Virus record (IMG/VR): IMGVR_UViG_3300020404_000006
Source of the DNA: a virus
Reading direction: 5' to 3' (one strand)
Length of the DNA stretch: 64,000 bases
Part shown: piece after piece, positions 29,676 to 43,229 of the stretch
Layout of the letters: every line of letters starts with the position of its first letter
Position numbering within the stretch: the first letter of the stretch is position 1
Position numbers and translations under genes: made by a program
The notes under the pieces: model-generated
What the model saw: only the letters and a program-made list of their open reading frames with translations
Database searches by the model: none
What the model was told of the DNA's origin: nothing

Positions 29676-32600
29676 TCAAGCATCTCCTCCGTTGGATCCA
29701 CCATTGCCACCATGAGACCCGCCATTGCCATTACCATTACCATTACCGCCATTGCTACCATTACCGTTCTTTCCTTTAGTTTCTTCTGATTCGTTTTCTG
29801 GTTTTAACATTCCACCATATCCTACACGATATCCTTTAGGAATGGGACGACATTTCTTCATATCATTACAATAGTATTCACCTTCACCACACTTTTTCTT
29901 TCCCTCACTGATGCCTGCTTTCCTTAATCTACTTGCCTGACTAGAGTGCATCTTTACTGCAGCATCTAATTCTTTGGCAATCTTTTTAACACCTTTAGGA
30001 ACTTCTTTTGTTTCAATTACAGGAGTATACTCATCCTTTAAATGATCTGGAATGATGTCAGACACATATCTTTGATGCTCTTTTCTCTGTAAGAGTCTCC
30101 TCCCTCTAGCACCAGCATCCATAGCTTTCATAGGCTGTTTCAATACTGCCTTTTTTCTTTTGACTGCCGCCACCATACCACCAAGTTTCTCAGAAATCAA
30201 CTCACCTGTCTCTGGTTCGTAACCACAGTTCCATGCTCTGAGAGACTTATTGATTCTAGAATCAGGATCTCTTGCAGTCTTAGCTGAGGTAAGTTTCTTT
30301 TTCATACCTTTCATTCTTGCACAGAATGATGCTCTTCTCTTGTTACCTTTCTTTTTACTAGGTGCTTTTAGATCTGAGCCTGGGTTCTCACGTTCGTAAG
30401 ACTTACGACCCTTCTCATTCAAACCACCTGACGAGTTCTTACCAGCCTTTCTTGTCCATGCTGCAGCCTCTGTCATAGAAGTATCAGGAGTGTAGTCTGC
30501 TGCAAGATTTCTATAGTCTGGTTCACCCTTCTTTACTGTTCCCTTTTTCTTTGCCATGTTGGCAGGGTCTTTTGGTTCTTCTTTTGGTTTGCTCCTTGTA
30601 GGATCAATAGAACCCTCAGTAAATTTTACAGGACTTGAGACAGTTCCCTTTCCATCAACGTATCTTGTGACTCTAGGGTTCTTTTCATCATCATTTCTAA
30701 AATCCTTATGTGTCTTCTTCCATTTTTTCCTTGACATCTCAACAGTTTCTTTCAACTTTTTCTTTCTAGACACCATCATATCTTGCAATCTATTTTTCTT
30801 AGAGATTGCAATAGCAGCCTGTTGTGCTGGATTTTTTGCCTCATCCATCGTATTCTTTCTCACATACTCTTTTCCACCAGCCCCTATGTCAGTAACCTTG
30901 ACTCCAATTTTTTTATCAGGATTCAGTTTCACCTTGACTACAGGTTTTTTTGCCTCACCCATCATTTTAGGACCGCCTGCTTTCTTCTCTGCAACTTTCT
31001 TCTCATTAGAATTCTCATTGCCTATGGCAAGATTCCTCATCTTCTGTTTCTTCTGTGCATCCTTATGCTTCTTAGGATCAATCTCAAAGCTATCGTTAAT
31101 CTGAGTAGTAGGATTTAGATTTTCTTTCTTCGCTTTATCTTGTCTCCTCTTCTTTTCTTTCTGTATTCTCTTCAACATAAACTTATTAGATGGCATACTC
31201 TGATCCATCTTACTAAACTTATCGTGAAGTCTATCTAAGTTGATGTCAGTCTGTCTGTGCATCTTAGCATCTTCTAAGATAGCAGCGAATTGTTCTTTTG
31301 TGAGTTTGCCAGTTTTCACGATCTTGTTACCTACAGGATACTTAAGGTCTTTTTTCTTTTCTGGATAATATTTATCAGTAAACCTAGATCTGTTACCAGA
31401 TTCTACTTGTTTCTTTGCAGTTTTCTTTTCCACTCTGATCTTAGCAGCGTCTTTGTAAGACATATCAGGATGGTCTTCGTGTTTGTCAGGATGATTAGGA
31501 TGATCCTTAGATACCTTCTCTTCGTTCACCTTTTTCTTTTTATCCGTACTAACATATGTAGGTTTTGCAGCACCTGACTTTGATTGTTGGCCTGGATCTG
31601 CTGCCTTCTTTCTTCTTGCCGCAGACTTTCTTTCTGCCTTGGTCATACTCGCACGTTTAGATGATGACACACACTTGGGAGTACCCTCGCCTGGTTCGTC
31701 ACTAGCACAGGTTCCACCTGTAACTACGTTGACCCAACCACCTTTACCATCTTTTGATTTAGATTTACCAAACCAATCACGGAGGCCTTCTTCTGTGGTT
31801 AGTGTTCTAGATCTTTTTGGGAGGGAAGATTTAATATTTTTACCAGCACCCTTTATAGGTTTAGTGACTGTCCCTAGTGCCTTGTCCACAGTTCTTCCAA
31901 CCATTCTACCTTTTAGTCCAGCGAGTTCGCCACCAGCGATTGATCCTAAAACTCCTCCAGCTAATCCCCCTGCAGCAGTGCCTGCGAGAGGCACTGCACT
32001 ACCAGCAGCTCCCATGGCAGCAGCACCACCTATACCACCAGCTATACTTCCAGCAGTACCAGCCACGGCACCACCAATCTTTTCAAATGTTCCTTTTTTA
32101 CCTTCATCTACTTTTTCTTGTTCTTTTTTTGATTTTAAATTTGATTTTAAAATTGCTGCTCCAAGTTCAACTATTGGATCCTTCTTCTTTTGATATCTTT
32201 TATCTAATTCATCAATATTTGGACCTCTTCTGTTAGGCATCACACCTAAATTCTCCTTTACTGGTGTCTTAGGAATCATGACAGGTTCAAACATCTTCTT
32301 CTTAGCCCAATCATCTGGAATCATGAGATGTTTTGCTTTAAATTGCATGTGCAAGAGAGTGGTATCGATGCCATTTCGTGAAGCAATTCTCTTCATCAGG
32401 TCATCAACTTCACCGTAGGATGGATAGTCTAATTTTACTAGACCATCTTCCAATTCTTTAACAGCGACTGACTCATTCATCTTTTTCTGTTGGGATTTTT
32501 TCTTGAGGAGGGTTTCTAAAGTGTTTGGGTCTTTAGGATCCTGTAGATCTTTGTATCTAGCAAAGAGACTCTTATCTTTTTTCTCTCCCTTGTACCCTTC

Positions 32601-37607: not shown

Positions 37608-39820
37608 TTCACACTAGTACGAACACTCTTGATAGGACAGGGTTAGCTGTCAAACCAACTGGAGCTAACGACAAGAAGGCATACTCTATCAAATGTTATA
37701 CCAAAGATGACTGGGTATTCATTCATGAAGAACTAGAAAAAGATGGTTCACTGGAAGATAATATTCCAGATCCATCAATAGTGTGTCCCGATAAAAAGGA
37801 ACATAGTGATACCAGAGCAACCTACATGTTGACTGATGCGGAAGCAGAAGACCTAAGAAAACATGAGAGGGTAGAGTTTGTCTGTATTGATTATGACGCT
37901 TACCCAGGCAACTACGCTCCCGATCCAAAAGATATTGTTGCTAGTATACAAAAGTTTGGTAGAGGAACAGGGTCGGTATCCAACTACAGAGCATGGAATA
38001 CTTCACCGACAGGCACTAGACCACCTACATCTCAGGCTGGTATAGGTGCATCAGATAAGAACAGAACTGGATATCAGATACTAAGACACACACAGAAAGA
38101 GAATCCTTGGGATGCAACATCCACTGGACTAACTCAATCTGATCATATTATTATAGAGACAGAGACAAAACAATTAGGCGATGGCACTGGTGTAGATGCA
38201 ATCGTGTCTGATGATGGTTTCTGGATTGCACACCCAGAATTTGTAACAACTGATGATGATCCTGTAGGATACTCAACAGGAAACGCATTGACATGGAGTG
38301 GTATATCTACAACACCAGGCACATGTGGTGTCCTAGATGTACTTCTTGATGGTCCATATTATATTGACCCAGACTGGTTCAATGCAGATCCAGGCAATAG
38401 ATTGACTCAACGTTGGGATGGTACAACAGTCCCAGTAGAGTCTGTAGCAAGAGCATGGTGGTCTGATTCAAGTCAGAGATCAGTAGGATTCTCTACCATT
38501 GGTACTACTAGTGGTTTCAGTGCTTTCTACAGTAGACAAAGTTGCAATGGAAGTAATACACAGAAACCAACCAACGGATCTGACCACGGAACTCAATGTG
38601 CTGGTCAAGTATTTGGTAAAAATTATGGATCTGCATACAACTGTAACAAGTGGGTGTTAAATGGTATTGGTGGTTCCAATGCTGGAATCAATGGTAGTCA
38701 ATTTGATATACAAAAACTCTTCCACTTATATAAACCAAACTATGATAGACATTCTGCTGTTACTGGCAAACAAAATGATACTAAAAACCCAACACTGTCA
38801 AGTAATAGTTGGGGATATAGGGACGATGCCATTCATGATGGTGGATTCTACTGGTATAGACCATCATCTATAGATGGATTAGTGCCTGGCACATCATATA
38901 CAAGTGGTAGTGAACCAGAATTCATTGATTTACTAGGTGCATATGGTGATGGTAGTAGAATGAAAGGAGAGATGGTAGATAGTTCTGTAACCGCATCTGG
39001 TAAAGAACTGTCTGACGCTGGAGTGATCTTCGTCTGTGCTGCTGGTAATAGTAATCAAACTCAGGTAAGGCCTGGCGATCTTGATTTTGACAACTATTGG
39101 GCTACAGCTGCTCAAGGAAATGATTCTCCTCTATCAGCGAGCACTCATTTTGAATTTGGTTTACAATGTTATAACACTATCAATAGAAGAGGGTGGCCAC
39201 AGTCATTAGGTAAAACTACATCTGGTTTATCTACTGCTGGAACTGAGTATGCTGCTATCAATATTGGTGCGTTAGATGATCAAATTGTAAGTGGTGGACT
39301 GGGTGGTAACACCACAGACTATAAAGAAAAGAAAGTTTCCTATAGTGACATGGGAACAGGTATTGATTGTTATGGTGCTGCTGATGACACAATGACAGCA
39401 GATGGTAGAGCGTCATCTCTTACATATCCACACCCAGAAACATATAGTGGGTTGACTTTAACTCCGTATGATATTGATTTTGGTGGCACTAGTTCTGGAT
39501 GTCCTACATGTGCTGGATGGATCACTACCAAACTACAATATAATAGAGATTGGACTTACACTGATGTAAGAAACTGGTTAAATAACAGTTGTGGTGCTCA
39601 ATCTCCTGACAGATTTTACTATGGTGATAACATAACAGGATTCACATCGACAACAGCTGCATGGGAGGATATGTATTCCGTCCAGATGTATGGTCAAGGA
39701 CCTGTTGTAATATGGGATGCTCCTACTGGTTCACCTACTGAACCAAAGAAACCTGAGATTAGAATCACAAACTCACCAAACTTAAAGTTTAGTGGTGGAG
39801 TTGAGATAAAATTCTCCTAA
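37604..39820 (+). CDS. subtilisin-like S8 serine peptidase, probably virion-associated
   Basis: catalytic DDG, HGTQCAG, AAGN, GGTSSGCP. Confidence 0.85.
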   Translation: MIHTSTNTLDRTGLAVKPTGANDKKAYSIKCYTKDDWVFIHEELEKDGSLEDNIPDPSIVCPDKKEHSDTRATYMLTDAEAEDLRKHERVEFVCIDYDAYPGNYAPDPKDIVASIQKFGRGTGSVSNYRAWNTSPTGTRPPTSQAGIGASDKNRTGYQILRHTQKENPWDATSTGLTQSDHIIIETETKQLGDGTGVDAIVSDDGFWIAHPEFVTTDDDPVGYSTGNALTWSGISTTPGTCGVLDVLLDGPYYIDPDWFNADPGNRLTQRWDGTTVPVESVARAWWSDSSQRSVGFSTIGTTSGFSAFYSRQSCNGSNTQKPTNGSDHGTQCAGQVFGKNYGSAYNCNKWVLNGIGGSNAGINGSQFDIQKLFHLYKPNYDRHSAVTGKQNDTKNPTLSSNSWGYRDDAIHDGGFYWYRPSSIDGLVPGTSYTSGSEPEFIDLLGAYGDGSRMKGEMVDSSVTASGKELSDAGVIFVCAAGNSNQTQVRPGDLDFDNYWATAAQGNDSPLSASTHFEFGLQCYNTINRRGWPQSLGKTTSGLSTAGTEYAAINIGALDDQIVSGGLGGNTTDYKEKKVSYSDMGTGIDCYGAADDTMTADGRASSLTYPHPETYSGLTLTPYDIDFGGTSSGCPTCAGWITTKLQYNRDWTYTDVRNWLNNSCGAQSPDRFYYGDNITGFTSTTAAWEDMYSVQMYGQGPVVIWDAPTGSPTEPKKPEIRITNSPNLKFSGGVEIKFS

Positions 39821-41337: not shown

Positions 41338-41345
41338 TATAAATA
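41338..41345 (+). promoter_or_regulatory. T4 late promoter
   Basis: exact TATAAATA. Confidence 0.75.
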
Positions 41346-41373: not shown

Positions 41374-41886
41374 ATGAAAAGATTTTTACCTATAATTATG
41401 CTTTTGATGGCGGCTCCCATGGCAGCGAGGGCCGATTTGATTCACAGATTGACTACGAGTACCCAACTCAGTGTTGACGGCGCAGCGACTCAGGCTACAA
41501 GAATTGGCTCAACTTATAGCGTAAGCGGTAACAATATCACCGCTGGTACTATGGGTGGACTCACCAAGTCAGCTGGAGATACAATTACAACTGCGGCGGC
41601 TAGTCAGACTCAAGGTTCTTACTCAGTTACTACTGCTGGCAGTGCCTTCAGCCTAACAGAATCATTTATTCTAGGCGATGCAGTAAATCCAATAGGAACT
41701 GGTGTTGACGTATCTGCTGGTATTGTTGCTGACATGCCTGCATATGGTAGTGTAGTAACACAAAGTGGCGGCGTGGCAGGCAGTCTTGCTGGCACGATTA
41801 CCTCAGCGGGCGTTATGACGCTAACAGCTGGAGGCGCAGGCACTAGTGCTACTGGCCAATTCGTTTCAGAAATTTCGATAGATTGA
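41374..41886 (+). CDS. secreted beta-rich protein
   Basis: Sec signal (AARA-D), Gly/Ser/Thr/Ala-rich. Confidence 0.75.
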   Translation: MKRFLPIIMLLMAAPMAARADLIHRLTTSTQLSVDGAATQATRIGSTYSVSGNNITAGTMGGLTKSAGDTITTAAASQTQGSYSVTTAGSAFSLTESFILGDAVNPIGTGVDVSAGIVADMPAYGSVVTQSGGVAGSLAGTITSAGVMTLTAGGAGTSATGQFVSEISID

Positions 41887-41895
41887 ACATGACTA

Positions 41896-42381
41896 ATGAA
41901 GAAACTTCTTGCGACATTTGTGGTTGCACTTGCCCTTGCGAATGTGAGGACTGCGAAGGCTGTGCCTGTGGTCCCTAATTTCCAACAGGGCAGCATGACA
42001 TCTCGGACCGAAACGACTTCGACAGTGACCGAGACCATAAATTCAATCGATATGAGGACAGGATGGGAGTACAGCGTGACGGGCACAGGGGTCTCCAACA
42101 ATGGAGAAGCCCTCAACCCACCAGTGAATACATCAACGGTGAATGTGACACCGAGCAGTTCAGCGGGTGCAACAGGAGGAGCAGTGGTGACAGGAACAGT
42201 AACAAGTTCCTTCGACTCCTTAGACTTCTCCAACCCAAGCAGCTTTACAATAACAAATCCAGGCGGAGCTTTCCAATTTACACAGAGCTACCAAGGGCCT
42301 GGCATGACCAATCAGACAATAATACAGAGAGTCACCACCATAGAAAGCGTGACCGACACAACTTCAACGTTTACGCAATAA
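41896..42381 (+). CDS. secreted beta-rich protein
   Basis: Sec signal (AKA-V), VPVVPNF, GGAFQFTQSYQGPG. Confidence 0.75.
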   Translation: MKKLLATFVVALALANVRTAKAVPVVPNFQQGSMTSRTETTSTVTETINSIDMRTGWEYSVTGTGVSNNGEALNPPVNTSTVNVTPSSSAGATGGAVVTGTVTSSFDSLDFSNPSSFTITNPGGAFQFTQSYQGPGMTNQTIIQRVTTIESVTDTTSTFTQ

Positions 42382-43229
42382 GTACATTAGTACTATCAAT
42401 TATCTCTCCGACGGCGGCATTAGCAGAGAATGTTGGAGGGGTATCAGCTACAGCAAATCCAATCGCGAACAGCTCGGGCAGTGTCACAAATCAAGCTATA
42501 CAGGTGCTACAGGGACCGTATATAACTAATACTTACGGTGGTGGCGTGCAATGTCAAGGTGCTACTGTTAACTTCACACCCTACTTACAATTTGCGGACA
42601 GTAGAAAAGATCCGTGGAGAGATGTAGTAATGGAACCTCAGTATAATACTACTGACTTCACTGGTCGTACCACACAACAAACTGTTACTGTAAAGAACTA
42701 TCCTTGGGAGTCATGGTATGACACAAGGACTAAAGCAGATGGAACTAGATGGTTCCCTGATGGGGAAGACATGGAGATAACAGTAGACGTAGATGGTCCA
42801 GACGGCATACCAGACAATCCTGGCCAAGTGGTCTGGGAGAAACCTGTTCGTACTGACATGACAGCAAACCAGTCATTGAATCTTGGTTTGTCTGCCACCC
42901 TATCCATACCATTGAATAGAAAACTACAAAAGCAATGTATGGAGGCAGCACAACTACAAAACAATATGCAGACTCAACTGATTGCTAACAAGAGATTAGA
43001 TTTTGAACTAGCGAGACTGAAGAATTGTGGCGAATTGAAAAAGAGTGGCATATTTTTCCACCCCAAATCACCCTACTATTCAGTATGTGCTGATGTAGTA
43101 GTTACAAATCCTGGCGGTCAATTACTTCCTCACACACATGATATGCCTGCACCAAATTGGAAAGAAGAAAAGACAAGTAATGACGCAAATGTTCTAGGAA
43201 CATTCTCTATCGGAGACACTAAAGATTAA
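42063..43229 (+). CDS. secreted/structural protein, start unresolved (long overlap with upstream gene)
   Basis: conserved-looking VGGVSATANPIANSSGSVTNQAIQVLQG core; no nearby canonical start. Confidence 0.7.
   Translation: MGVQRDGHRGLQQWRSPQPTSEYINGECDTEQFSGCNRRSSGDRNSNKFLRLLRLLQPKQLYNNKSRRSFPIYTELPRAWHDQSDNNTESHHHRKRDRHNFNVYAISTLVLSIISPTAALAENVGGVSATANPIANSSGSVTNQAIQVLQGPYITNTYGGGVQCQGATVNFTPYLQFADSRKDPWRDVVMEPQYNTTDFTGRTTQQTVTVKNYPWESWYDTRTKADGTRWFPDGEDMEITVDVDGPDGIPDNPGQVVWEKPVRTDMTANQSLNLGLSATLSIPLNRKLQKQCMEAAQLQNNMQTQLIANKRLDFELARLKNCGELKKSGIFFHPKSPYYSVCADVVVTNPGGQLLPHTHDMPAPNWKEEKTSNDANVLGTFSIGDTKD

Follow-up and report, generated by a model that had tools for sequence, protein, structure and literature searches.

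An internal ATG of a DUF6322 gene as the probable start of an out-of-frame overlapping gene in T4-like cyanophages

Introduction

Few viruses in the ocean are as abundant as the T4-like cyanophages. A 64,000-nucleotide (nt) stretch of viral DNA (IMG/VR record IMGVR_UViG_3300020404_000006; hereafter, the window) carries a region matching the T4-like cyanomyoviruses (Kyanoviridae), most closely S-SSM7 and S-SSM6a at 86% nucleotide identity. Three consecutive genes in this region encode proteins that are predicted to be exported, and the third of them, gene 3, lacks an ordinary start codon near the part encoding its mature protein. Where, then, does the translation of gene 3 begin? An original prediction, made from the sequence alone, offered three answers: a −1 ribosomal slip at AATTTCC (41979) early in gene 2, true overlapping translation from the ATG at 42063, or an AUA start at the ATAA that overlaps the gene 2 stop. 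The second is the one backed by the comparative data, in which both the ATG and the open frame are conserved. We consider it likely that gene 3 is a true same-strand overlapping gene, starting independently at ATG 42063 within gene 2.

Results

The −1 Frame and Its ATG in the Window

Gene 2 (41896–42381, plus strand) encodes a predicted exported protein of 161 amino acids, with a match to the Pfam family DUF6322 (E = 1e-34) and to phrog_650, and provides the reference frame of the overlap. The frame of gene 3 is −1 relative to gene 2; it stays open between 41979 and 43229, sharing 403 nt with gene 2, exactly as the original prediction had placed it. That prediction had also missed no ordinary start near the mature region: the sole ATG, GTG, or TTG in the −1 frame ahead of it is the ATG at 42063–42065 (plus strand), composed of the last base of a Gly codon (GGA) and the TG of the only Trp codon in gene 2. 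Six near-cognate codons also lie in this frame (ATC 42000, ATC 42132, ATT 42276, ATA 42378, ATT 42399, and ATC 42402).

Counted from the internal ATG, the dual-coding overlap spans 42063–42381 (plus strand; 319 nt, ~105 codons). Frame 0 corresponds to the C-terminal two thirds of gene 2, while frame −1 would encode an N-terminal extension of gene 3. Only 19 of the 134 gene 2 codons within the 403 nt end in T, in comparison with 67 of 170 in gene 1 and 86 of 267 in the mature part of gene 3; an earlier manual count had given about 18, and the depletion relative to the neighboring genes holds. The 84 nt of open −1 frame preceding the ATG (41979–42062, plus strand) were seen in the window, S-SSM7, S-SSM6a, and one further locus (L005). 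Most orthologs of the window's type carry a −1-frame TAG or TGA 2–5 codons before the ATG, and this additional stretch is therefore lineage-specific and probably non-coding in the −1 frame. The predicted opening of the frame at 41979 is thus true of the window but not general.

Conservation of the Internal ATG at Two Positions

We collected orthologous loci of two types. The type A sample, to which the window belongs in arrangement, comprised 80 IMG/VR loci with the gene 3 domain, together with S-SSM7, S-SSM6a, and P-SSM2; the statistics refer to 69 distinct gene 2 sequences. Gene 3 lay in the −1 frame in all 79 loci holding both genes, and this frame was open for 313–403 nt before the gene 2 stop in all 75 loci that were not cut at an end. 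The −1 translation of every type A locus showed R-M-G/A at one alignment column, with the Met 96–107 codons before the gene 2 stop; P-RSM6, Bellamy, S-SM2, and S-RIM12 use this site with an overlap of 97 codons. No other ATG, GTG, or TTG was conserved in the −1 frame of the 69 sequences.

The codons around the ATG were nearly invariant. The context Thr-Gly-Trp was written as ACA GGA TGG, with GGA and TGG in 69/69 sequences and ACA in 68/69. Where Gly or Thr is invariant elsewhere in the alignment, three or four codons were used, and GGA accounts for 21–30% of the Gly codons in the neighboring genes.

The type B sample consisted of 76 distinct loci, namely 70 of 80 further IMG/VR loci fetched and six isolates (Syn9, P-RSM4, S-CAM1, ACG-2014d, S-RIM8, and S-RIM2); S-CAM4 and S-B05 are additional members, and one locus (L137; gene 2 match far from gene 3) was left out of the counts. 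In these phages, gene 3 is again in the −1 frame, but the overlap is shorter. Their ATG is located 55–57 codons before the gene 2 stop, at a different Trp (in a ...SSWTG... motif), and they have Tyr at the position of the type A Trp. The ATG was present in 76/76 loci, and the −1 frame contained 1–8 stops in the 50 codons 5′ of it. The open frame begins near the respective ATG in each type, and so tracks the ATG in both. The residue preceding the type B Trp varies (Ser in 44 loci, Thr in 18, Lys in 9, Arg in 4, and Gln in 1), while the third base of its codon is always A. A variable residue with an invariant A before TGG points to the ATG itself as the selected feature, rather than the gene 2 protein. 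The ortholog alignment, which had been suggested as a check, thus returned a −1 frame kept open from the internal ATG in all distinct type A and type B loci.

The position of the start can be rationalized from the composition of gene 2. An NTG start in the −1 frame needs a TGN codon in gene 2, and in the window gene 2 contains one Trp and lacks Cys. The start would therefore be tied to the Trp codon, which would account for its far-upstream position and for its shift together with the Trp between the clades.

Selection on the Open Frame

We simulated the overlap in two ways. In the first simulation, the gene 2 amino acids were fixed and the synonymous codons were resampled to match codon usage in genes 1 and 3; in the second, the synonymous codons of each region were permuted among themselves. 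For type A, the −1 frame was open from the ATG in ≤0.05% of the trials for each of the 69 sequences (P ≤ 5e-4) in the first simulation, and in ~3% on average in the second. The simulated probability of an open frame in type B had a mean of 0.028. Codon choice at the sites where a stop could arise was equally one-sided: codons ending in T before a codon starting with AA, AG, or GA numbered 0/1467 in the type A overlap and 0/787 in the type B overlap, versus 156/497 in gene 2 5′ of the ATG, 765/1702 in gene 1, and 1957/4654 in gene 3 (31–45%). The openness of the overlap is far beyond chance and is selectively maintained in more than 140 related loci, as is the ATG.

Across the 69 orthologs, the amino-acid identity was 0.73–0.92 in the gene 2 frame and 0.40–0.47 in both alternative frames. 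Purifying selection on the residues of the extension was considered and rejected, as their identity did not exceed that of the +1 control frame; the third-position entropy differed only slightly (1.36 versus 1.51 bits). The net charge of the extension was always positive, ranging from +7 to +20 in type A and from +3 to +12 in type B. Selection thus acts on the openness of the frame, on the start codon, and probably on charge, but not on the residue sequence.

Predicted Signal Peptide and Mature Domain of Gene 3

A Sec-type signal peptide core is predicted at 42333–42425 (plus strand), with a basic n-region (HHHRKRDRH) inside gene 2, an h-region that crosses the gene 2 stop, and a c-region reading AALA. 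From the −3/−1 rule, cleavage is predicted between 42425 and 42426 (plus strand; ALA/ENV). In the window, the extension ends in HHHRKRDRH...VYA, followed by a hydrophobic stretch of ~12 residues with a mean Kyte–Doolittle value of ~2.0. By hydropathy and motif scoring, the basic n-region, the ~12-residue h-region, and the small residues at −3 and −1 are those of a Sec signal peptide. The motif [A/V/S/L]-x-A stood directly before [E/Q]-x-VGG in the 131 loci scored, including both types, and the sequence continues as VGGVSATA.

The mature conserved domain and its stop codon occupy 42426–43229 (plus strand) and belong to phrog_848, also named T4-GC 235 or the Syn9 gp165 family. The alignment columns include an invariant VGGVSATA...NQAIQVLQGPY segment and four invariant Cys residues. 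In the AlphaFold2 model, six long β strands and a 42-residue helix were predicted, with predicted local distance difference test scores (pLDDT) of 67–92 over the β and helix parts; residues 1–112 of the precursor had pLDDT <50, the sole predicted helix there being a short one at the h-region. No match to gene 3 was found in Pfam or among PDB sequence profiles. A Foldseek search of the PDB with two gene 3 models returned nothing at E ≤ 0.001 (TolC, 2vdd_A, ranked 43rd with E = 2), VIA-align wide with the two models gave a best Z of 5.0 that covered the single long helix only, and the ESM Atlas contained only unnamed viral clusters with template modeling (TM) scores ≤0.44.

The helix and Cys region (mature residues 150–225) has a short match in T7-like cyanopodoviruses, at 35–42% identity over ~75 residues (AY939843.2, P-SSP7, 38957–39163; NC_016658.1, NATL1A-7, 30920–31120), which suggests a module shared across phage families.

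Five type A loci carry a 45–60 nt insertion after gene 2. In these, an ATG 3–18 nt past the gene 2 stop, in the gene 2 frame, opens a 26–38 codon open reading frame (ORF) that overlaps the signal-peptide-coding part of gene 3 in a different frame (L014:1856-1990, L035:2433-2560, L050:660-780, L061:1881-2000, and L073:2457-2560). The encoded sequence is acidic at its N-terminus and continues as a hydrophobic helix (as in MEEKYQEP...LLSL.VLL.F.L). Possible explanations are a small membrane peptide, extension of gene 2 by read-through, or a side effect of the hydrophobic residues encoded in the other frame.

Proposed Initiation, Export, and Cleavage

Translation of gene 3 is proposed to proceed as follows. 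Ribosomes would start at ATG 42063 inside gene 2, in the −1 frame, read ~105 gene 2 codons out of frame, and then continue into the conserved exported domain. The overlap would encode a strongly basic extension of 55–105 residues, with the last ~13 residues serving as the n-region of the Sec signal peptide, while the hydrophobic core and the AxA site would be encoded just past the gene 2 stop. Signal peptidase I would probably remove the whole N-terminus, to leave a periplasmic or envelope protein beginning with E-N-V-G-G. Initiation at the internal ATG, export, and cleavage are all read here from conserved sequence features. By predicted folding, the 40-nt windows containing the ATG are the least structured in gene 2 (mean −2.4 kcal/mol, in comparison with −6 to −13 kcal/mol upstream), and this low structure fits initiation that is poor in Shine–Dalgarno signals.

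Four points weigh against this proposal. A Shine–Dalgarno sequence at the proper spacing is not conserved, as AGGA abuts the ATG and an upstream AGG was present in only 31/69 type A sequences. The identity of the extension residues (0.40–0.46) was no higher than that of the +1 control frame (0.43–0.47). The ATG and the predicted cleavage site are separated by ~121 residues (window) or ~65–75 residues (type B), in contrast with ~18–35 residues for a usual signal peptide, so that export and cleavage would have to act on a precursor with a 50–105 residue n-region, far longer than usual. Lastly, our literature search found no paper that analyzes the overlap between genes 2 and 3.

An internal late promoter was also considered as a source of gene 3 transcripts. 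The sequence TATAAATA is the established late promoter of T4; with at most one mismatch, it occurred ~30 nt 5′ of the ATG in only 9/69 type A sequences, which is not convincing. In type B, the matches to TATAAATA were scattered from −130 to −80 and reflect conserved Ile-Asn-Ser codons.

Beyond supplying a start and an n-region, it is rather unlikely, although conceivable, that the extension has a role of its own, that the overlap sets the ratio of gene 2 to gene 3 products or a delay between them, or that low-level −1 slippage generates a gene 2–gene 3 fusion. The extension may persist after cleavage as a membrane-anchored cytoplasmic polycation, with a role that depends on its composition; one ORF would then supply products to two compartments. 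Alternatively, a gene 3 start lying under the ribosome traffic of gene 2 could possibly fix the ratio or the delay required for late envelope assembly.

Alternative Explanations of the Open Frame

Could the ribosome reach gene 3 by another route? Programmed −1 frameshifting within the overlap would fuse the signal peptide and the N-terminal part of gene 2 with gene 3, and it would agree with the −1 relation in every locus and with the selection on the open frame. However, no X XXY YYZ heptamer occurred at one alignment column in more than 5 of the 69 type A sequences, and RNAalifold returned 0 consensus pairs in the regions analyzed, which were −30 to +90 around the ATG and two locally stable GC-rich stretches (at −105 and +40). 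Moreover, frameshifting gives no account of an open frame that ends just 5′ of an invariant ATG in two clades and at two positions, or of a base before TGG that is always A despite the changes in the amino acid. We therefore regard it as very improbable. The particular slip at AATTTCC fares no better, as most orthologs have a −1 stop between that site and the ATG, and neither a conserved heptamer nor, in the regions folded, a conserved RNA structure was found.

A non-canonical start or termination–reinitiation at the gene junction, using ATA 42378 within ATAA or a nearby ATT or ATC, would make the upstream open frame incidental. An ATAA or GTAA junction is indeed present in all loci, because gene 2 ends with Gln-stop; genetic code table 11 admits ATA, ATT, and ATC as rare starts, and the annotators of P-SSM2, ACG-2014d, Bellamy, and S-B05 chose starts at or after the junction. 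Nevertheless, the junction codon is ATA in 41/69 type A sequences and GTA or GTG in the other 28, and the ATG-forming CAA-TGA is absent from the type A junctions listed. A junction start also leaves unexplained why more than 140 lineages have retained the ATG and 55–107 stop-free upstream codons, and it would deprive the signal peptide of the conserved basic n-region encoded by the last ~13 overlapped codons. This explanation thus appears improbable, and an AUA start at ATAA is unsupported as a general mechanism. It is most unlikely of all that the long ORF alone is real and gene 2 a spurious call, or that the overlap is an assembly frameshift error. Although the GenBank records of S-SSM7, S-SM2, and P-RSM6 omit gene 2, its DUF6322 match, its own ATG and signal peptide, and its frame identity of 0.73–0.92, versus 0.40–0.46 for the −1 reading of the same DNA, speak for a genuine gene, and more than 140 independent contigs and isolate genomes share the arrangement.

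The Gene Trio and Its Probable Late Promoter

Independent initiation of gene 3 within gene 2 would take place in a trio of genes that is widespread among these phages. The locus region matched 382 phage records at the DNA level, and the trio was found in 419 of the phage records searched. A perfect match to the T4-type late promoter consensus, read from the sequence at 41338–41345 (plus strand), lies 29 nt 5′ of gene 1, and the trio is therefore probably expressed as a three-gene late transcript driven from this site.

Gene 1 (41374–41886, plus strand) encodes a predicted exported protein of 170 amino acids (phrog_564, E = 2e-56), with a signal-peptide-like N-terminal segment ending in ARA/D. 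The N-terminal signal peptides of genes 1 and 2 are clear, and that of gene 2 is a cleavable signal of the AxA type. Genes 1 and 2 look like distant paralogs, given a weak match of gene 1 to DUF6322 (E = 0.049, below the cut-off), their shared signal peptides, and a common Ser/Thr/Gly-rich, β-type composition. Clear Shine–Dalgarno sequences were not seen before genes 1 and 2 either.

At the 3′ end of gene 3, the window carries an inserted 2OG-Fe(II) oxygenase gene, whose ATG at 43229 overlaps the gene 3 stop (TAATG). Many relatives instead have a gene 3 annotation whose 3′ end runs 80–230 nt into T4-GC 234, the convergent downstream gene on the opposite strand (for example L084:2408-2487 in Syn9, L002:3273-3487 in P-SSM2, and L175:2222-2451 in S-RIM12).

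Annotation of the Overlap in Deposited Genomes

The existing records treat this locus inconsistently. Both genes were deposited as overlapping in Syn9 (gp166/gp165, 166 nt), P-RSM4, S-RIM2, S-RIM8, S-CAM4, and S-RIM12 (292 nt). Gene 2 was omitted in S-SSM7, S-SM2, and P-RSM6, and in S-SSM7 a 29-amino-acid ORF was called at the gene 2 start instead. Gene 3 is truncated, with loss of its signal peptide, in S-SSM6a, ACG-2014d, S-B05, and P-SSM2; up to ~83 residues of the conserved domain are missing in S-SSM6a, and the Bellamy annotation loses all but the last residues of the signal peptide. The family profiles are split in the same manner. The phrog_848 profile spans the type B extension (residues 1–283 of Syn9 gp165 correspond to positions 1–281), and residues 57–105 of gene 3 in the window align to its positions 6–54, while phrog_1755 is a truncated form of the phrog_848 family. 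Overlapping coordinates for T4-GC 235/236 appear in the supplement of Sullivan et al. 2010 (PMC3037559) and receive no discussion in the text of that paper.

Discussion

If gene 3 starts where we propose, a simple annotation rule follows, in which gene 3 begins at the xxA-TGG of the Trp codon of gene 2. This rule would fix the inconsistent records and the split between phrog_848 and phrog_1755. The locus also provides a statistically strong natural case of a long (166–319 nt) out-of-frame overlap in a large phage genome, in which selection maintains the open frame and the start codon alone, rather than the residues, and in which the start appears to have moved with a single Trp codon between clades. 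As judged from the sequence comparisons, the overlap is a well-supported further example of an overprinted same-strand overlap and reveals no new mechanism; its value is practical, for annotation, and its conceptual novelty is modest.

Among known systems, the −1 frameshift cassettes, such as the gpG/gpGT tail assembly chaperones and dnaX, likewise have a downstream frame at −1 and no canonical start near the junction. They differ from the present locus, where no conserved slippery heptamer and, in the regions folded, no conserved stimulatory structure was found, and where a conserved in-frame ATG marks the 5′ limit of the open frame. A further parallel is the extended signal peptide region (ESPR) of autotransporters and two-partner secretion (TPS) proteins, also an unusually long segment N-terminal to a standard n/h/c Sec signal peptide. 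The ESPR, however, measures ~25 residues and has a conserved motif, whereas the extension described here has 55–105 residues, lacks such a motif, and is encoded within gene 2.

The Rz/Rz1 spanins of lambda and its relatives are also same-strand, different-frame phage genes for envelope-targeted proteins that are expressed late; the downstream start lies inside the upstream gene, and the 'overlapped' class extends past the upstream stop. Rz1, in contrast, is a +1-frame lipoprotein with a lipobox Cys, while gene 3 is in the −1 frame and has AALA/ENV without a Cys at +1. Gene 2 has a cleavable signal peptide, unlike the N-terminal membrane anchor of the upstream spanin partner, and the overlap here would encode only a disposable N-terminal extension rather than a functional body. 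Genes 2 and 3 do not show the features expected of a spanin pair: no locus had a Cys at the cleavage site, gene 2 has an AxA signal, and gene 3 combines the long helix with a large β domain.

The overprinted genes of small phages, namely B within A and E within D of phiX174 and the L gene of MS2, are similarly out-of-frame, same-strand overlaps with independent initiation, and the overprinted reading is likewise compositionally biased, poorly conserved, and probably disordered. Those genomes are tiny and under strong size constraint, whereas the closest relatives of the window have genomes of ~233 kb (S-SSM7), and here the overlap would contribute no more than a leader or extension, the rest of this conserved gene being free of overlap.

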